Shown here piece after piece: positions 1 through 7,394 of a stretch of DNA of 7,394 bases. Both the position numbers and the translations under genes were made by a program. This stretch comes from a virus. Lineage: Duplodnaviria > Heunggongvirae > Uroviricota > Caudoviricetes. Each line of letters starts with the position of its first letter. The first letter of the stretch is position 1. The stretch spans positions 1-7,394 of the IMG/VR virus record IMGVR_UViG_2671180727_000001; one strand, given 5' to 3'. Below the pieces are notes generated by a model. It had not been told where the DNA came from. It worked only from the letters and a program-made list of their open reading frames with translations, and made no database searches.

Positions 1-1007
1 GTTGTGGCTGTTGAAGCAGACGATGCGGCACTTTCTGCCGATTTTCCGGCGGCGGTGGCACTGGCTGAGGCCTGCCCGGCACTTGTTGACGCGGCACTGG
101 CAGACGATGCAGCCGCTGTTTTTGAGCCTGCCGCAGCTGAGGCGCTCTGTCCCGCTGCCGTCTCAGAAGACCTGGCGTTCGTCTCGGACGTTTTTGCCGC
201 CTTCGCGGAATTTCCTGCCGCCGTTGCCGAGGAAGCTGCGCTACTGGCGCTCAAGGATGCGTTCGTTTCTGATGATTTCGCTGCCTCTTTTGAGGCCGCC
301 GCATCCCGGGCTGAGGTGGCAGCTTCTGACGCTTTCGTGGTCGCGGTGGATGCAGAAGTGGCTGCTGATTGTTGTGACGCTGCGGCATTCGTTTCAGATT
401 TTTTCGCAGCAGTTGCACTCGCACTTGCGGCACTTTGTGAGGATGCCGCAGCGGATGCACTTTGAGACGCTTGAGAGGCTTTTTCTCCAGCGGTATTGGC
501 GCTTTCTGCTGCTGCGGCAGCACTGGCCGCCGCCTCACGAGCTTTGTCGCCAGCAGCATCAATCGCGTCAGTGTTATTTTTATACCACTCAACGTTTTCG
601 TTGTGCTCGTTGACGATCTGCATTAGCGGCTTAACGGTTACTTCTGTACCGTCTTCACGCTCGATTGTCACCTCATCCAGAGCAGTCAACCAACTGCGCA
701 TAGACTTGGAATCAGCCGACATACGCGACATTAGTGCTGTAAAGCGCGCGCTAAACTGTGTTAAGTCGCCTTCATAGGTCGTAATGATTCGGCACGGAAC
801 TTCAGACTGAGTTTCGCCGGTATAAGGTTCTGAGAGAACAATGTTCGTATCACTGGTTACGCGCTTGATCTCATACAGTTTATTGTCGGGGCCAATGACG
901 ATCATCCCCGGCAACACACCATTAGCTGTTACGTTCCAGGCTGTCCCTGCCCCAACCAGAGTATTGCTACCCTGTGTAAATGTGATAGTACCTTCCCTGT
1001 ACCACAT
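1..1007 (-). CDS. stf: Side tail fibre protein, lambda Stf-like; N-terminal 335 codons only, 3' end lies beyond the window start
   Basis: Manual minus-strand translation from ATG at 1007..1005 is open for 335 codons to position 1 (MWYREGTITFTQGSNTLVGAGTAWNVTANGVLPGMIVIGPDNKLYEIKRVTSDTNIVLSEPYTGETQSEVPCRIITTYEGDLTQF...). From about position 540 downward it becomes an Ala/Ser/Thr-rich repeat region (...KKSETNAAASQQSAATSASTATTKASEAATSARDAAASKEAAKSSETNAS...) that is close to the repeat region of lambda Stf as I recall it. AAGGAG lies 10 nt upstream of the ATG. Not in the ORF track because there is no in-window stop. Confidence 0.8.
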   Translation of the reverse strand, partial: MWYREGTITFTQGSNTLVGAGTAWNVTANGVLPGMIVIGPDNKLYEIKRVTSDTNIVLSEPYTGETQSEVPCRIITTYEGDLTQFSARFTALMSRMSADSKSMRSWLTALDEVTIEREDGTEVTVKPLMQIVNEHNENVEWYKNNTDAIDAAGDKAREAAASAAAAAESANTAGEKASQASQSASAAASSQSAASASATAAKKSETNAAASQQSAATSASTATTKASEAATSARDAAASKEAAKSSETNASLSASSAASSATAAGNSAKAAKTSETNARSSETAAGQSASAAAGSKTAAASSASAASTSAGQASASATAAGKSAESAASSASTAT

Positions 1008-1028
1008 GTTGAATATGCTCCTTGATTT

Positions 1029-1065
1029 GGCGGGTTATCCTTGCCCGCCATTAAGTAATTACTTA
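1029..1065. promoter_or_regulatory. Intergenic inverted repeats between J stop and stf start: GGCGGG-N9-CCCGCC (1029-1049) and a perfect 14-bp palindrome TAAGTAATTACTTA (1052-1065)
   Basis: Read directly from the sequence. The GC hairpin sits immediately upstream of the stf Shine-Dalgarno on the minus strand. No U-tract follows it on either strand, so it is not a canonical intrinsic terminator. Function unknown. Confidence 0.3.
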
Positions 1066-1100
1066 CCTATTTTTACCGATATAAAATTTTTTTTCCACCA

Positions 1101-4100
1101 TCACAGACGGCCAATTCTTACTCGTAAGACGTTGTTATCGTCATAAACGTCAATCCGCTGACCATTTATAACCAATCGCCCATTGCCGCCGCTATTACCG
1201 TTGATCTCAAGCGTTCCATTTTTGCCGAACCGCCATCCAGATCTACCGCTAACAAAATTGGTAGATTGCAGATCGCCTACTTTTGCATTGGTGATTGTGC
1301 CATCCTTGATATACGCTCCATTCATATAGGCGATACTGTTTTCGATAACAAATGGCGTTGTGATCTTCCCGTTAACAGAGTTGACCAAACCAAACCTGTC
1401 CGCCTGAACCAAAAACTGAGATAGCCCAGTGGTGTCAATACCAAGCGCAATACCGGCAACATACTTCTGCCCTCCGCTCGTTGAAGTTTCCATTTTCAAC
1501 GTCCACGCGGTTGACACTTTTTTGTTGGTATCAGCAATAGCTGTTGCCTGCTGTTGAATTGTCGCGGTATTTCCATCCACCTCTGCTTTCAGAGTATCGA
1601 TTCGCCCACTCAGAGCATTATCTGCCTGCGTTCTCGCTGTCGTTTCAGTTGTTACCGCCGCGGAAATGTTGGCTGCCGTTTGAGACTCTAAGTTTGTGAT
1701 TTGAGTCGCCAATGCAGCATCTTGCTCTGTACGCGTTTTCGTTTCGGTTGCTACAGCCGCTTTAATATCCTCTTTGTATTGAGAGGTCAGCTTGGTGATC
1801 TGAGACGACAACGCCGAGTCAGCATCAGTTCGAGCCTGCGTTTCAACTGCAACGGCCGCACTAATATCTTTCGCTGTCTGTGCTTTTAAACTTGAAACCT
1901 CTTTTGTTAAAGCGGTATCACCATCTGCACGAGCCGTTGTTTCTCTGGCAAGAGACGCCTCGAGATCATTAGCTTTTGCTGTAAGAGACGTAATCTGGGT
2001 AGACAATGCACTATCGGCATCAGTCCTTGCTTTTGTCTCTACAGCAACCGCTGCGGCAATATCAGTTCCGGTTTGTGCTCGCAGGCTGTTAATTTCTCGT
2101 GAGAGCGCCTGGTCAGCACTTGCTCTGGCCTCCTGCTCCTGAGTGATGGCCGCGGATATATCACCGTCAACCTTTGACTGAAGCTGGTTTATTTGTTTGG
2201 CTAACGCAGAGTCCCCGCTTGCTCGGGCCTCCTGCTCACTACGTATTGCAGCAGAAATATCATCATCAACCTTTGCCTGAAGTTGGGTGATCTGGCTTGC
2301 CAGAGCCGAATCTTCCGTTGCTCGGGCTTCTTGCTCTTCCTTAATAGCTGCGACGATATCGTTGCTTACTTTCGACTCAAGCTGAGTGATCTGTGTCGTC
2401 AGAGCTTCATCGGCAGATGTACGAGCCTCCTGCTCTGTACTAATCGCCGCGCTGATATCTCCTTCAAACTTAGATTGCAGCTGAGTGACACGCTTTGCCA
2501 ACGCTTCATCGCCATCGGCACGAGCGGTGGACTCTTCCAGAATACTGGCCTTAATGTCTTCGCCAATTTCTACGCGAATTTCCTCAACCTTCGTGGCCAT
2601 TGCAGACATATCATCAGCAAAGGTTTTCTGTGTTGTTGCGATCTTCGCGTTATTGACCATCTGCTTGTGCTGGTCTTCATCTTGACGAAGAGCCAGGTCA
2701 ATATTTGTTTTGGCTAACGCCTCAATGTTCGTAGTCAGTTCTGCACTGGCACGATCGACCTCTGCAACCGTCTTTTTCATTTCTTCAACGGCAGCGGAGC
2801 TTTCCTCTACCGTTGACTGCAACACTTCCAGTTGTTTAGCGTTTGCAGCATCGCCTTCAACACGAGCCTCGCTTTCCTTAGCAATAAGAGCCGCCGCTTC
2901 ATCTCTTGCAGCCTTTATTGCCTCGACTGTATTAGCGAGAGCTTTATCGTGTTCAGATACGGTGTTTTCGATTTCAACAATTGCAGCATCAGTAGCATCA
3001 ATTTTTTCAAACGCTTCATTGACCTTGTCGATCGTTGCCGAAACCTCACCTTTAAGCTCGGTTTGTGCGTTCTCCAAAGCATCGCTACGCTCGTTGAATT
3101 TTATTTCAAAATCCGCGAGGTTATCGCTGAACTGCTTATCTAATTCAGCTATATCTTCCTTAACGTCGTTTACCGCCCCCTCCAAAGATTCGACGCTCTG
3201 GTTGATATGCTCATTTAACTCGTCAACTGCTTCTTGAGAGGCTTTGCTGTTGATGTCCTCAAGCAGAGCCTGACCAAGCTCGGAAGATGTAATTTTGCCA
3301 GTCAGGAACGACAGTACATCGCGAGTTGTCGCCTCTGTACCCAAGTTTGAGTTCGGAGGACTTAACATACCTCGCTTGTTCGATGCTCGAACCCAGTAAT
3401 ACCACGTTTCGCTATCCCCAAGACCAGCATGTGTAAAGGTGGTGCTTGCAGACTCTGCGATCAGTTTCGCCGTATCCAGATTGTTGGTCTGGGATGCGTA
3501 AACATTAATGTGATCAAGGTCTACCGAATCTGGATTAACCCAATTCAGTATCACATTACGATAGTCTCCAACGGCCGTTAATGACGTTGGGGCATCCGGC
3601 GGTGTCATTGTGCCCAACACCTGATAAACGGTACTGATAATCTCTGTTTTTTTACCGTTGAATGAAACCGCATACAGCTGGAAGTCGTAGCGTCCATTCT
3701 CCGCGACATTAACGATTTCGTATTGCTCTTCGGTTACACGCGCCGATTGCCAGTTCGATACATTGTTTTCATCAGAACGTCGCCAACTGATCCAATACTC
3801 TGGAGATTTCCCTTCCCATGTTGCAGTCAGTTTTACTGACAGGTTGCCCGGGCTTGAGAGATAAGTCCCTTCAGTGATTTGCAGATTAGATGGCTTGGAG
3901 TAAGTTGGGTCCAATACCGTCGTATTCTGCGGGATCAGCGTTGCACCATTGTCGATTGCCTCATATTTAGACGGATTGTTCTCAACAGCGGTGATGTCAA
4001 AGCTACCCGGCGTTTCCCCCTGCGCGATGTTAACGATGCGAACGCGCATAGGTTCGAGGTCTGGTTCTGTAATAGTCCAGACGCCGTTCAAAACAGGCGT

Positions 4101-5828
4101 TTCAGCCGAAGACAGGGCTTTTGAAAACGTAACTTTTGTTATATTTTCGCCAGTTTCAAGAACATCGCGTTCAACGATTTTGCCTTCCTGATTCAGTATT
4201 CGAATAAAGCAGCCGCCTTTGGCTAACGACACAGGCGCATCGAGTGTGACGCTGTTTTTGGTAAACGCCACAATTCGACCTGAGTTACGTTTGCCTGCGC
4301 GATATTTGTTCTGAATCAGAACGGTTTCACCAGGCATCAGAAATGACGCGTCTAAGCCGGCAGTAAATGTAATTACATCCGACTCCATTCTGGCGGTATA
4401 TAAAAGCCACAAACCAACTCGGTGAGCCTGCCCTCGGCTTGTACAGCCAAATGCTACGACTTCTGTTTTACGCTCACCATAACGGCGCATTGCGTCCTGA
4501 TCTTCGACGTACTCGATGTTTTGCTTATAACCGTCCTCCTTGTTGTTGTAGGTTACGAGCGCAACGGATGGGCGATCTTTACGCGCAGAACCTTTATAGG
4601 TAAACAATCCATCTTTGACGTTAGAGTTGGTAAACATCATTACCGGATCTGATGGGCTATCCTGCATGATGTTAACCATCCCACCAGCCCAAAACACCAT
4701 GCCGCGGAATGCTCCGGCAATATCCTGAATTAGCCGGTATGCGTCCTGTCGACTGGTGATCTGCGTATTGATTGCAAAGCGTTTCTCTTTGCCACCAAAG
4801 CCATCATCGACCTCTTCGTCACAATATCGACCAATCTGGTACAACTGGCCAAGGTCAATCATAGATTCCGACACATACTGACCAAGGCCATATCGAGCAT
4901 TGGTCAGCAAATCAAAGAGAATCCACGCGGGGTTCGAAGAAGACAACAGCTTAAAAGTGCCATCCCATACCCCAGCGTAAGTGTTACTGGACTCGTTATA
5001 GTTTGAAGGTACTCGAATTTTTAGGCCACGCACCAGATAAGAGCGAGATGGCATGGTGCTGCCGAATTGCTCAGAGTTTACCTTCAATCCAACCAAAACA
5101 GAGTTTGGATAGTTCATCGGTGTATCGACAATTTCCCCGATTGAATCCACCCATGTATCGTTATAGAGATACTGGCTACTGTTATCATCGGTAATACGGA
5201 CCACACGAACCTTGTATGCTCGTCCAGGCTTAGGCAGCTTCAGCTCATAGCTACGGTAATAAACGCCGGTCTTCTTTGCTGTTAGCTTAATGCCAACGCT
5301 TTTTTCACCTTCAGCGACCACATCTACAAATGTTGAGTCGCCATTTGCTATCTGGAACTTGTACTCAACAGTCGTACCGTTCGTGTCACCAGTTTTTTTA
5401 TCTATGCTTCGCAAAGAAGGAAACTTCATGATGACACGAACCCGATCAGCTTCATCGTTATCGATTGAAACCGTTACATAATGTGTTTTTTTTAACTGGA
5501 TATTGACGGATTTAGGCGTTTCAACGAAATCAAAGCCAGACATTGGAGTCTGGTCTTGTGAACCGTCGCGAAAATCCCATGTGATTCCGCTGAAGTTGGA
5601 GGAACCGTCTTCATTTACAATCGGCAGATCGTCGATAAAAATAGATCTTGCGCCATTTACCAAGCCGCCAATTACCCCTTCCCCAAGAAGATCGAGGATA
5701 GCGGCCATTGCACGAGAATTTACGGTATCGTCGGCTTCAACCGGTGTACGGCTAGAGCTTTTGCTGCTTTTTTTACCACCCGCACCTGCAATAAACAGCG
5801 GTAACTTTTTCTTCTTGAACTGTTCCAT
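1101..5828 (-). CDS. J: Host specificity / central tail fibre protein, lambda gpJ-like, with a greatly expanded coiled-coil insertion (about 1575 aa)
   Basis: ORF-track ORF 1101..5834 (TTG); I prefer the in-frame ATG at 5828, two codons in, with AAGGA upstream. The N-terminal ~880 aa match lambda J as recalled (e.g. NYPNSVLVGLKVNSEQFGSTMPSRSYLVRGLKIRVPSNYNESSNTYAGVWDGTFK against lambda CYPNTALVGVQVDSEQFGSQQVSRNYHLRGRILQVPSNYNPQTRQYSGIWDGTFK; also FGCTSRGQAHRVGLWLL and the GKITSSELG motif). The C-terminal GGQKYVAGIALGID...LSQFLVQADRFGLVNS matches lambda KHYVAGIGLSMED...LSQFLVAANRIAFID. Stop TGA at 1103..1101. Confidence 0.9.
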   Translation of the reverse strand: MEQFKKKKLPLFIAGAGGKKSSKSSSRTPVEADDTVNSRAMAAILDLLGEGVIGGLVNGARSIFIDDLPIVNEDGSSNFSGITWDFRDGSQDQTPMSGFDFVETPKSVNIQLKKTHYVTVSIDNDEADRVRVIMKFPSLRSIDKKTGDTNGTTVEYKFQIANGDSTFVDVVAEGEKSVGIKLTAKKTGVYYRSYELKLPKPGRAYKVRVVRITDDNSSQYLYNDTWVDSIGEIVDTPMNYPNSVLVGLKVNSEQFGSTMPSRSYLVRGLKIRVPSNYNESSNTYAGVWDGTFKLLSSSNPAWILFDLLTNARYGLGQYVSESMIDLGQLYQIGRYCDEEVDDGFGGKEKRFAINTQITSRQDAYRLIQDIAGAFRGMVFWAGGMVNIMQDSPSDPVMMFTNSNVKDGLFTYKGSARKDRPSVALVTYNNKEDGYKQNIEYVEDQDAMRRYGERKTEVVAFGCTSRGQAHRVGLWLLYTARMESDVITFTAGLDASFLMPGETVLIQNKYRAGKRNSGRIVAFTKNSVTLDAPVSLAKGGCFIRILNQEGKIVERDVLETGENITKVTFSKALSSAETPVLNGVWTITEPDLEPMRVRIVNIAQGETPGSFDITAVENNPSKYEAIDNGATLIPQNTTVLDPTYSKPSNLQITEGTYLSSPGNLSVKLTATWEGKSPEYWISWRRSDENNVSNWQSARVTEEQYEIVNVAENGRYDFQLYAVSFNGKKTEIISTVYQVLGTMTPPDAPTSLTAVGDYRNVILNWVNPDSVDLDHINVYASQTNNLDTAKLIAESASTTFTHAGLGDSETWYYWVRASNKRGMLSPPNSNLGTEATTRDVLSFLTGKITSSELGQALLEDINSKASQEAVDELNEHINQSVESLEGAVNDVKEDIAELDKQFSDNLADFEIKFNERSDALENAQTELKGEVSATIDKVNEAFEKIDATDAAIVEIENTVSEHDKALANTVEAIKAARDEAAALIAKESEARVEGDAANAKQLEVLQSTVEESSAAVEEMKKTVAEVDRASAELTTNIEALAKTNIDLALRQDEDQHKQMVNNAKIATTQKTFADDMSAMATKVEEIRVEIGEDIKASILEESTARADGDEALAKRVTQLQSKFEGDISAAISTEQEARTSADEALTTQITQLESKVSNDIVAAIKEEQEARATEDSALASQITQLQAKVDDDISAAIRSEQEARASGDSALAKQINQLQSKVDGDISAAITQEQEARASADQALSREINSLRAQTGTDIAAAVAVETKARTDADSALSTQITSLTAKANDLEASLARETTARADGDTALTKEVSSLKAQTAKDISAAVAVETQARTDADSALSSQITKLTSQYKEDIKAAVATETKTRTEQDAALATQITNLESQTAANISAAVTTETTARTQADNALSGRIDTLKAEVDGNTATIQQQATAIADTNKKVSTAWTLKMETSTSGGQKYVAGIALGIDTTGLSQFLVQADRFGLVNSVNGKITTPFVIENSIAYMNGAYIKDGTITNAKVGDLQSTNFVSGRSGWRFGKNGTLEINGNSGGNGRLVINGQRIDVYDDNNVLRVRIGRL
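1572..2558 (-). repeat. About ten imperfect tandem 99-bp (33-codon) repeats inside J, encoding DISAAIxxEQEARxxADxALxxQITQLxSKVxx-type units
   Basis: The translation shows consecutive 33-residue units (DISAAISTEQEARTSADEALTTQITQLESKVSN / DIVAAIKEEQEARATEDSALASQITQLQAKVDD / DISAAIRSEQEARASGDSALAKQINQLQSKVDG / ...). At DNA level a recurring motif appears at ~100-bp spacing (gctctggcctcctgctc near 2122, gctcgggcctcctgctc near 2220, gctcgggcttcttgctc near 2320, acgagcctcctgctc near 2421). Confidence 0.7.
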
Positions 5829-5846
5829 GTTCAAAAAAATCCTTGT

Positions 5847-6440
5847 TTACATTAGCTGGTCAATCGTGATTGAAGAACTCACAACCTGTGAGCCAACCAG
5901 AATTTCCTCGCCATAGATAAGTTGTACTGGGTTGCCCTGGTTTTCTGTATTTTGAGGGCCGTCGAAATAATAAGAGTTCGAGTTATCTGCCTGTCTCACA
6001 CTTTCGTTAGTGGCTTGCGGCGATATGATTTGTGATATGCCGCCCATCATCAGTGACAAACCGAGAGGTGCTAAAGCAGGCATCACTACCGCCGATACAA
6101 CCAACAAAGCGGCCCCTACTACCGTCTGAAACCACCCAAAAGCAGATCCACCGCTTCCTCGCGGAACAGGTGTAATGCGGATTTTGGCAATGTTGTCAGA
6201 CTGCCCCATCATCTGATATTCACTTTCGTCAACAGACCACTTGTGGCCCTGTTTATTGGTGATCTGGATGTGGTAACGGTCATAGGTTTTGATATTGCGC
6301 TTCATCCATGCTTTAAACCCAGGCTTGTTGGCCTCAATTAAATCCAGAGCCTGTTTTGTATTGCGCACCTTTAGATGCCAGTGGCGGCCAAAATGTTTGG
6401 CCATAGGGCCGCCAAGCTGCACATGAACTAACTCAGACAC
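5847..6440 (-). CDS. I: Tail assembly protein, lambda gpI-like (197 aa from GTG)
   Basis: ORF-track ORF; start is GTG at 6440..6438 with GGGAG upstream; a later ATG at 6404 is an alternative. The N-terminus VQLGGPMAKHFGRHWHLKVRNTKQALDLIEANKPGFKAWM resembles the recalled lambda gpI N-terminus (VRLYGDLADRFG...ANYPGFQSAM). The C-terminal half has a Gly-rich segment followed by a hydrophobic stretch (PRGSGGSAFGWFQTVVGAALLVVSAVVMPALAPLGLSLMMGG). Position between K and J matches lambda gene order. Confidence 0.8.
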   Translation of the reverse strand: MSELVHVQLGGPMAKHFGRHWHLKVRNTKQALDLIEANKPGFKAWMKRNIKTYDRYHIQITNKQGHKWSVDESEYQMMGQSDNIAKIRITPVPRGSGGSAFGWFQTVVGAALLVVSAVVMPALAPLGLSLMMGGISQIISPQATNESVRQADNSNSYYFDGPQNTENQGNPVQLIYGEEILVGSQVVSSSITIDQLM

Positions 6441-7225
6441 GTCTCATCTCCCTTGAGCAAGTCTCTGTGACGCAAGTGATGCGTCGTATGTTTCTGATAC
6501 ATTCCGCCGTAATAAGCACGACAACTAAGACGGTCGATCTGGTGATGAAGAATCATTCCATCGCCGATATAAACCGCGCAGTGATCTGGCATTTTCCCGT
6601 ATTGAATAAAGAAGACGTCCCCACGTTGAGGCTCTGTTCCAGGTGCAAGCCGTACCAATCCCTCGTTTCGGTAGTTCTGGTCGAGAATGTCGTTATCGCC
6701 GGTGTACCACGATGGAATATGCAGGTGTGCGTTCGGGTTAAGCTCGACGTTAAACTCACGCTTCAAATAGTCCCGACACAACATCCAGCAATCGAATACG
6801 CCAAATACATACGGTCTACCCAGGTATGGCATTTCGAAACCATCAGGTGTGATCACATTCATCTCGCTAAAATGGAAAGGGGCATCTCCCTCAACATTCT
6901 TGCGAATAGCCAGAATCATCCACGGAACTTCCGTCGCTTCACAGCCTGCACGATCGGCATCAGATGCTTCTGCTGATTCATCAGTATGTGAATGCCAGAT
7001 TGCGATTACGTCACCTGCATCCTCTGCCGCCATAATGTCGTCAACGTGCATTACAAAAGTGTTCTGCGGGTTCTCCGAAACATTTCGCGCTTCCATAAAG
7101 CGATATTTGTCGCCATTAGTTCTCACCAGAAAGCCACACGCTTCATTAGGGTAGCGATTTATGGCGCAGAGATAGATTTGCTGCATAACATCAGAGCCAA
7201 GCTCAGGGATTGCTTTATTACCCAT
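6428..7225 (-). CDS. K: Tail assembly protein, lambda gpK-like, with MPN/JAMM and NlpC/P60 domains (266 aa from ATG)
   Basis: ORF-track ORF 6428..7252 starts at TTG; I prefer the ATG at 7225..7223, which has GGAG 9 nt upstream. The JAMM motif H-x-H-x7-S-x2-D is present as HSHTDESAEASDAD, preceded by PNEACGFLV. NlpC/P60-like Cys and His contexts are present (GVFDCWMLCRDYL; HCAVYIGDGMILHH). The stop overlaps the I start by 13 nt. Confidence 0.85.
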   Translation of the reverse strand: MGNKAIPELGSDVMQQIYLCAINRYPNEACGFLVRTNGDKYRFMEARNVSENPQNTFVMHVDDIMAAEDAGDVIAIWHSHTDESAEASDADRAGCEATEVPWMILAIRKNVEGDAPFHFSEMNVITPDGFEMPYLGRPYVFGVFDCWMLCRDYLKREFNVELNPNAHLHIPSWYTGDNDILDQNYRNEGLVRLAPGTEPQRGDVFFIQYGKMPDHCAVYIGDGMILHHQIDRLSCRAYYGGMYQKHTTHHLRHRDLLKGDETCLS

Positions 7226-7294
7226 ATCGCGTAGCTCCAATAAACCCGCCAAAATGGATCACTCCGTTGGCAAAATAATTCCGACGCGCATTAC
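7218..7294 (-). pseudogene. L: 3'-terminal remnant (24 codons plus stop) of a lambda gpL-like tail tip assembly gene, truncated at the IS boundary
   Basis: Minus-strand frame reads ...NARRNYFANGVIHFGGFIGATRYG* and resembles the lambda gpL C-terminus as recalled (...KFRNNVGNFGGFLSINKLSQ*). Its TAA stop overlaps the K start (ATGGGTAA), as in lambda L/K coupling. The frame is cut at 7294/7295 by the IS end and no L N-terminus is present in the window. Confidence 0.55.
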
Positions 7295-7394
7295 TGAACC
7301 GCCCCGGGAATCCTGGAGACTAAACTTCCTGAGAAAGAGGTAAACAGGATGACTAAAAATACTCGTTTTTCCCCTGAAGTCCGTCAACGGGCAG
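7295..7394 (+). mobile_element. Left end (IRL plus leader) of an IS3-family insertion sequence, IS629/IS1203-like; continues beyond the window
   Basis: The sequence from 7295, TGAACCGCCCCGGGAATCCTGGAGACTAAACTTCCTGAGAAAGAGGTAAACAGGATG..., begins with the TG dinucleotide typical of IS3-family ends and matches my recollection of the IS629/IS1203 left terminus. It is followed by the orfA start. Only one end is visible, so the target-site duplication cannot be assessed. Confidence 0.8.
7359..7394 (+). CDS. IS3-family transposase OrfA, N-terminal 12 codons (partial)
   Basis: ATG at 7359 is preceded by GAGAAAGAGG (SD) with 8-nt spacing. The translation MTKNTRFSPEVRQRA matches the N-terminus of IS629/IS1203-type OrfA (HTH protein) as recalled. 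Not in the ORF track because there is no stop in the window. Confidence 0.8.
   Translation, partial: MLVFPLKSVNGQ

Follow-up and report, generated by a model that had tools for sequence, protein, structure and literature searches.

We analysed a 7,394-nucleotide (nt) stretch of viral DNA, positions 1 to 7,394 of the IMG/VR record IMGVR_UViG_2671180727_000001 (hereafter, the window), which contains the gene for a J-like central tail fibre, or tail tip protein (J). The explanation that we favour overall, with a probability of roughly 60%, is that J carries a greatly expanded, trimeric alpha-helical shaft joining its FNIII domains to a distal beta-prism, and that this shaft belongs to the repeat family of the F-type pyocin fibres. 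At the nt level, Escherichia phage Cyrano (pLF82), the SSU5-like phage-plasmid of E. coli LF82, shares 98.8% identity with the window over 7.3 kb, and Salmonella phage SSU5 shares 79%. The window is the minus-strand K-I-J tail-tip module of an SSU5-like phage-plasmid, and the minus strand is the coding strand of all its genes (K, I, J and a side tail fibre). New here are a 33-residue shaft unit and its copy-number variation, the extension of a fold-switch motif over ~15 units, a conserved island within the shaft and a pyocin-like docking domain on the side fibre.

An insertion inside the helical shaft of J

In phmmer searches against the PDB, J matched lambda J (8iyk_J, E=2e-124) and the F2-pyocin fibre (25vf_A, E=1e-154), and Pfam recognised the domains FNIII-A_GpJ, Phage-tail_3, fn3 and Phage_Tail_Tip. 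The alignment to lambda J fell into two pieces, J residues 19-861 pairing with residues 3-837 of 8iyk_J and J 1419-1547 with 840-971; likewise, BLASTP placed J 859 opposite lambda 835 and J 1420 opposite lambda 841. The conserved motif at the proximal side of the split, GKITSSELGQALLEDI, comprises J residues 844-859 (nt 3299-3252) and aligns with lambda 820-835, and its distal counterpart, GGQKYVAGIALGID, comprises J residues 1452-1465 (nt 1475-1434). Since both methods agree on the split, the motif-to-motif spacing is 611 residues here versus 55 in lambda, a net gain of ~556 residues. The 592 residues between the two motifs contain no proline, 2.9% glycine and 18% alanine. An earlier, sequence-only reading of the window had located both motifs to within ~25 nt, had given a separation of roughly 50 residues in lambda against about 590 here, and had described an Ala-rich segment low in Pro and Gly, flanked by motifs homologous to those of lambda J; the alignments confirmed these claims and the insertion point with them.

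In lambda, the FNIII-2 domain and the beta-prism fibre are separated by a three-helix bundle termed 'AHS' (residues ~809-861), and binding to LamB turns residues 841-861 into two extra beta-strands atop the prism (PMC11101478). J residues 1420-1440 align exactly to lambda 841-861, the segment that switches to beta, and by this alignment the insert is located inside the helical shaft of lambda J, within the 841-861 piece.

The regions on both sides of the insert are those of a lambda J or TipJ-type protein. K and I lie upstream of J, the homology in the hub and FNIII domains is present, and the beta-prism central straight fibre domain (PF09327) follows the helical shaft; on the NCBIfam model lambda_TipJ, the score of J is 527 bits, below the cut-off of 1950. 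The N-terminal region of J had 10,227 matches in a library of 50%-identity cluster representatives. In Foldseek comparisons, the predicted tip resembled the SU10 tip fibre (7z4b_EA, 5e-8) and the open-state fibre of lambda (8xcj_F, E=3e-7; 8xci chains, 3.5e-6 to 6.6e-6), whereas 9wca_F, a related fibre (A8 gpJ) in its closed state, matched only with E=0.4; no pyocin entry was among the matches to the predicted structure in the PDB (entries to April 2026). We did not find in J the lambda-type C-terminal receptor-binding domain (lambda ~990-1132, which binds LamB): the alignment stops at lambda 971, and J itself ends 18 residues past the Pfam tip domain.

We obtained two AlphaFold2 predictions, both of monomers. 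The first (residues 928-1575, 58-sequence alignment) gave helix over 929-1407, with a predicted local distance difference test (pLDDT) score of ~50-85 and two short breaks separating helices 929-1085, 1090-1249 and 1257-1407, and beta-structure from 1411. The second (residues 1224-1575, 105 sequences) gave one unbroken helix over 1225-1408, with pLDDT 85-96. Because the second break was gone in this shorter construct, the breaks of the first model (1086-1089 and 1250-1256) are, at least partly, fold-back artefacts. AlphaFold2 models the final one and a half of the repeat units (J 1411-1440; window 1563-1598 and 1500-1570) as beta-strands, and the lambda segment aligned with them, 841-861, is helical when closed and beta only when open and bound to LamB.

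The hydrophobic periodicity of the insert peaked at 3.56-3.65 residues, with a power of 113 versus at most 77 in 200 shuffles; the period was ~3.56 for residues 860-1090 and ~3.65, equivalent to 33 residues per nine turns, for the repeat array described below. The long helix and coiled-coil-type periodicity that had been predicted from the sequence were thus recovered by AlphaFold2 and by comparison with the shuffles and do not stem from chance or low complexity, and the added length of tens of nanometres becomes roughly 80 nm for ~555 extra helical residues. The segment is very probably the helical shaft of a member of the pyocin/J family, and a helical, selected ground state is well supported. 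We assumed that the shaft is trimeric because every solved J homologue is a trimer with C3 symmetry.

Repeat units shared with F-type pyocin fibres and their variation in number

Printing J in rows of 33 residues made a tandem array visible. The motif SxSxxMxxLxS has been described as the signature of a fold switch, with 24 siphophage fibres predicted to behave likewise (He et al. 2026 preprint, PMC12874032). Scanning for it in both orientations yielded 46 matches in the insert versus 16.2 ± 3.7 in 1000 shuffles (maximum 28). These matches alternate strictly, as reverse(+15)forward(+18), from residue 948 to ~1440, defining ~15 units of 33 residues that span residues 948-1422, and each canonical unit contains one reverse and one forward copy. 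The register is interrupted by a 16-residue phase break between 1038 and 1060, and the resulting 49-residue gap occurs in every relative.

Unit statistics were pooled from 683 non-redundant units of 277 homologous proteins, giving the consensus AAIxxExxARAxADxALAxxIxxLxAxV. Four positions are highly conserved (E6, 91%; R10, 91%; D14, 90%; A16, 88%), the 'S' positions are occupied by small residues in 81-99% of the units and the 'L' positions by I, L or V in 90-96%. These frequencies agree with the rules published for the S, L and M positions, among them the pairing of Glu with Arg (PMC12874032), and a query with J 830-1575 alone retrieved residues 882-1193 of 25vf_A (E=1.2e-24). On these sequence grounds, we assign the units to the same repeat family as the F-type pyocin central-fibre shaft. 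Searched alone, the insert gave in Pfam only sub-threshold hits to SF-assemblin and Baculo_PEP_C, and no curated family, and in PHROGs only generic 'tail fiber' families.

Couplings between positions i and i+4 dominated the covariation in the pooled units, with E6-R10 being the strongest. This pattern bears on a very improbable alternative, in which the repeats already form a triangular prism of ~14-15 nm in the virion and the predicted helix is an artefact of monomer modelling. A native prism would be compatible with the motif, which tolerates beta-structure, with the prism fold of the adjoining tip, and with the observation that AlphaFold3 gave prism, not coil, for 30% of related phage fibres (He et al., PMC12874032). 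However, the i,i+4 couplings and the E6-R10-D14 ladder, the unbroken helix with pLDDT 90-96 and the hydrophobic period of 3.65 all oppose it, and the solved pre-ejection pyocin fibres are coiled coils.

Conservation along the shaft is uneven. An island at residues 1009-1095 shows 80-95% identity to five divergent relatives, versus 35-60% in the flanking shaft, and is both the lowest-confidence stretch and a site of helix break in the first AlphaFold2 model; conversely, identity among relatives is only 4-54% at residues 877-943.

Long J proteins are the standard architecture of SSU5-like phage-plasmids, with the window allele at the long end. All 120 of the 120 closest protein clusters are long (1353-1575 residues), J having 1385 residues in SSU5 and 1535 in PhiR41_1. 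The motif spacing varies between 389 and 611 residues in E. coli and Salmonella, the window carrying the longest allele in the E. coli set. Spacings among relatives were 389, 422, 462, 501, 526, 534, 545 and 611 residues, several of the steps being 11, 33 or 66, and the alignment of relatives showed clean, in-register gain and loss of whole 33-residue units. A homologue from Klebsiella pneumoniae (MCJ8600983.1; 2138 residues, on a 102-kb contig) reaches 22 units and 1089 proline-free residues. Some of the repeats were shared by 227 of 50,697 phage records, only 8 of which covered at least 80% of the insert. The 50%-identity representatives of the J N-terminal region are up to 4353 residues long and, where they end in the same tip domain, their linkers measure 117-3226 residues.

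We also considered whether the long open reading frame could be a product of repeat misassembly or gene fusion rather than a real protein, since tandem repeats are prone to misassembly. At the DNA level, the only recognisable repeats are four 99-nt copies (2088-2483), merely 62-71% identical, a divergence indicating that the array is old and has been kept by selection on the protein. Additionally, the 1776-nt insert allele was found, at a minimum of 95% identity, in 167 of 5,426 complete E. coli genomes (3%), on plasmids of ~105-115 kb and never on the chromosome; the exact J protein cluster has 1980 member sequences; and the independent phage records Cyrano, CMS-2020a, SSU5 and PhiR41_1 carry a long J. 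An artefactual origin is effectively refuted.

The sequence-only reading had presented the shaft as a substantial departure from the canonical tail tip, to be discounted if the long form proved common and well described. The departure is real in comparison with lambda but not unique: the long form is common in its lineage and a similar shaft was solved in 2026 in F-type pyocins, although our literature search found no publication describing one for SSU5-like phages, nor any on the J shaft of SSU5 or Cyrano.

Among the 50%-identity representatives, those nearest to the J N-terminus, P0241 (2930 residues, 85% identical in the N-terminal 843, on a 106-kb contig) and P0243 (4233 residues), are two to three times longer still. 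They lack canonical 33-residue units and contain several blocks of 150-290 residues that are free of proline and set apart by other sequence; related phage-plasmids thus seem to have elaborated the central fibre in another way and to an even larger size. The nt similarity of the window to Klebsiella SSU5-like phage-plasmids extends from 7294 down to 3222 and ends at the GKIT motif, where the shaft begins; this motif looks like a recombination boundary for swapping a shaft-plus-tip module. In one E. coli plasmid, NZ_CP020118.1 (41350-43901), an IS1 transposase annotated inside the shaft match divides J in two, the parts being labelled 'phage tail tip fiber protein' and 'host specificity protein J'; this phage-plasmid is presumably defective for infection. 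Lastly, the same 33-residue units also occur in P0172, P0177, P0180, P0209, P0212 and others, whose sole precomputed Pfam domain is PF03906; if this holds for PF03906 proteins, the repeat module would be common to podophage-type fibres and not confined to J-like proteins.

Possible fold switch, possible side-fibre docking and competing roles

Three papers from 2026 describe, in F-type pyocins, a J-homologous central fibre with a trimeric coiled-coil shaft of ~163-180 residues. In the F7 pyocin, this 163-residue coiled coil switches to a beta-prism and the tape measure protein is ejected; in the F-pyocin, three side-fibre trimers dock through their N-terminal domains on an acidic kink of the shaft. 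Should J work in the same way, a three-stranded stalk of ~85 nm would, in the virion, keep the tip domain far below the tail cone, and three side-fibre trimers would dock on it via their pyocin-like N-terminal domains, probably at residues 1009-1095. Receptor engagement would convert the motif-bearing part (~948-1420) from coiled coil to stacked beta-prism, as in the F7 pyocin and with lambda 841-861 as a small-scale precedent for the conversion. Each 33-residue unit would become one beta-hairpin and the stalk would shorten from ~70 nm to ~14 nm, releasing the FNIII closure and opening the tip. These dimensions are estimates, calculated from 0.1485 nm per helical residue (~85 nm for the stalk and ~70 nm for the motif region) and from ~30 strands at 0.48 nm (~14 nm).

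We place a fold switch of the motif-bearing shaft, which we infer from family membership, somewhat short of even odds. J shares several features of the fold-switch family, namely homology to the C-terminal part of a pyocin fibre, a long predicted helix preceding a beta-prism, and an alternating motif whose acidic M position is paired with Arg at ±4. Also in favour of a switch, the tip and the last one and a half units are predicted as beta-structure, closer to the open state of lambda than to the closed state of A8.

The side tail fibre gene starts at nt 1007, and its first 335 codons lie within the window. The N-terminus of the product (~105 residues) matched residues 3-104 of 25ve_A, from the F2-pyocin side fibre, with E=4e-4 as a single sequence in phmmer searches of the PDB and 7e-5 as a profile; the homologues gathered for the profile were close relatives only, so that the gain in E-value was small. 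It is 88% identical to the SSU5 fibre over residues 1-120 and showed no similarity to the N-terminal collar domain of lambda Stf, which in Ur-lambda forms a collar at the gpV-gpM junction. Because the shaft island and this N-terminus are both conserved, we propose the island, tentatively and at somewhat less than even odds, as a candidate docking site for the side fibres. A pyocin-like docking domain on an otherwise lambda-Stf-like fibre suggests that shaft-mounted side fibres are not peculiar to tailocins.

Several results weigh against this picture of an expanded, pyocin-like fibre. No virion image displays a stalk; electron microscopy of Cyrano, with a tail of 259 ± 12 nm versus 230 nm expected from the tape measure, is too coarse to reveal one. 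The canonical array has a period of 3.65 and is not a continuous heptad, whereas the PA0641 pyocin shaft has been described as mainly heptad. The homology between the side fibres is modest, and the distance from the cone to the island is much greater than that to the docking site in the pyocin. No genes for distal adhesins like PyoF11/F12 (PA0642) exist between J and the side fibre, which are separated by a gap of 93 nt (1008-1100). Neither AlphaFold2 run (58- and 105-sequence alignments) produced a beta-prism for the repeats; this is weak evidence, as both were monomer predictions and the published dual-fold test used trimers with deep versus shallow alignments (PMC12874032). Finally, direct-coupling analysis for hairpin contacts, on the 683 units and on 66-residue double units, showed an i+j=27 antidiagonal that was only marginally raised; the analysis was underpowered or negative, with helix-type couplings alone being clear.

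The same observations are relevant to a passive role, in which a stable, rigid helical stalk sets the reach of the tip, for instance through O-antigen or capsule or to match long side fibres, and undergoes no fold change. Helix-type covariation, the helix-only, high-confidence models of both AlphaFold2 runs and the whole-unit length variation among relatives, up to the 22 units of the Klebsiella protein, are as expected for a spacer. However, ~90% conservation of E6, R10, D14 and A16 is not required of a spacer, nor is a small residue at each of six set positions of the unit (1, 9, 11, 16, 18 and 26), and these conserved positions fit the published dual-fold motif (PMC12874032); moreover, the homologous pyocin segment switches, as does lambda 841-861 (PMC11101478), and AlphaFold2 predicts beta-structure for the last one and a half units, which carry this motif. 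We consider a purely passive stalk rather unlikely. The altered reach of the tip from the baseplate, which the sequence-only reading had suggested, stands as one likely role but, given the match to the fold-switch motif, only one.

More speculatively, the fold switch could make the stalk contractile. Collapse of ~15 units from ~70 nm to ~14 nm would reel the non-contractile tail ~55 nm towards the outer membrane, and selection would tune the number of units (~10-15 in E. coli and Salmonella phage-plasmids, 22 in a Klebsiella one) to how thick the surface layer of the host is and to the stroke and energy required to cross it; we regard this extension as doubtful. If the F7-pyocin switch does apply, these elements would be replicating phages whose shaft has about three times the pyocin length and that form a natural series of unit-number variants, and this series would offer a direct test of how stored conformational energy and stroke scale with repeat number. 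SSU5-like phage-plasmids are widespread in the Enterobacteriaceae.

Gene content of the window and comparison with known systems

The coordinates of the genes and of the segments of J are collected in Table 1. The I homologue had no match in Pfam or NCBIfam and contains a long hydrophobic stretch, FGWFQTVVGAALLVVSAVVMPALAPLGLSLMMGGISQII, comparable with the helices that are predicted to insert into membranes in lambda gpI and in the pyocin tip plug protein. We treated two plus-strand open reading frames inside the J region (2283-2717 and 2710-3237) as artefacts, antisense to a gene with good support. Megablast similarity to Cyrano and its relatives ends at nt 7294, and the last 100 nt (7295-7394, the end of the upstream L gene) appear divergent.

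Table 1. Features of the window and of the J protein
Feature	Position (nt)	Strand	Basis or remark
Tail tip assembly protein K homologue	6428..7252	-	Pfam PF14464 and PF00877 (JAB/MPN and NlpC/P60 domains); Cyrano annotation
Tail tip protein I homologue, 197 residues	5847..6440	-	Open reading frame; Cyrano label 'Tail tip protein I'
J-like central tail fibre / tail tip protein gene, 1575 residues	1101..5828	-	ATG at 5828, stop 1101-1103; Cyrano CYRAN_20 is the same gene
Hub and FNIII domains, residues 1-832, common to lambda J	3333..5828	-	Pfam at 102-236, 358-521 and 745-824
Start of helical shaft, residues 833-861, including GKITSSELGQALLEDI; equivalent to upper helix of lambda shaft (lambda 809-840)	3246..3332	-	
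Inserted, proline-free predicted helical shaft, residues 860-1419	1572..3251	-	~555 residues more than lambda; ~83 nm if all helix
Non-repetitive proximal shaft, residues 860-947, acidic	2988..3251	-	Most variable among relatives, 11-residue indel; best-fit period 3.6
Four degenerate 32/33-residue units, residues 948-1093	2550..2987	-	Motif pairs start at 948/963, 980/995, 1012/1027 and 1061/1076
Conservation island, residues 1009-1095, with LALRQDEDQHKQ and acidic, Gly-containing break VEIGED (1086-1091)	2544..2804	-	
Array of 10 canonical 33-residue units (one of 32), residues 1094-1422	1563..2549	-	Register printout, motif scan, unit hidden Markov model matches
Distal beta-rich tip, residues 1411-1575	1104..1598	-	Pfam Phage_Tail_Tip PF09327 at 1423-1557, E=1.4e-41; AlphaFold2 beta-strands from 1411
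Side tail fibre, N-terminal ~110 residues (OB-like domain and helical stem)	678..1007	-	Homologous to shaft-docking N-terminus of F2-pyocin side fibre
Side tail fibre, Ala/Ser-rich proximal shaft; gene runs off the window	1..677	-	Translation

The side tail fibre is a mosaic, with a pyocin-like OB domain and stem at residues 1-~110 and lambda Stf-like sequence at ~200-335. Its residues 202-323 share 81% identity with lambda Stf 205-326, and nt 1-483 are 91-93% identical to the stf genes of lambdoid prophages, with a GC content of 60% versus ~47% elsewhere in the window. This sequence pattern suggests that side-fibre sequence has recently been exchanged between lambdoid prophages and phage-plasmids. 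The sharp boundaries between the domains would be useful for host-range engineering.

Among the closest known systems are SSU5 gp20 and the other SSU5-like J proteins (Cyrano CYRAN_20, PhiR41_1 and pHCM2-type plasmids), which are the same gene and have the same architecture, the same island and the same 49-residue phase break. Their tip domain is nearly identical, and the differences are confined to unit number and the proximal stretch.

With lambda gpJ (8iyk, 8xcj/8xck), J shares the K-I-J gene order, the hub, the FNIII domains, the GKIT...LG motif topping the shaft and the beta-prism central straight fibre. Unlike in lambda, the shaft has ~575 rather than ~53 residues, and the side fibre lacks the domain with which lambda side fibres form a collar at the gpV-gpM junction. 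Two other solved proteins are intermediate: PDB 9l9p_S, a 'putative tail fiber protein' of 1172 residues, carries the 33-residue unit in about three copies (DIQASLTDIREVIATETEALSREIDQLKAQIGD) and has the same C-terminal tip, with RVQIGRL at its end, and PDB 23gd_D, the 'J-like tail tip protein gp24' (1148 residues), has an intermediate helical region. The shafts of both are much shorter than that of J, with ~150-190 residues.

The F-type pyocins (PyoF10 / PA0641; F2, PDB 25vf; F7) likewise have a J homologue in which a long, trimeric helical shaft connects FNIII-2 to a distal beta-prism, the motif with its E/R pairs, and a side fibre with a homologous N-terminal OB-like domain; the F2 sequence ASLQSEQTARANADSALAQRIDTVQA and the last F2 unit fit the unit consensus. 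They differ from J in that the pyocin shaft has ~163-180 residues and ~5 units, as compared with ~560 residues and ~15 units here, and in that pyocins are tailocins, for which alone the fold switch has been shown, whereas J comes from the virion of a phage-plasmid.

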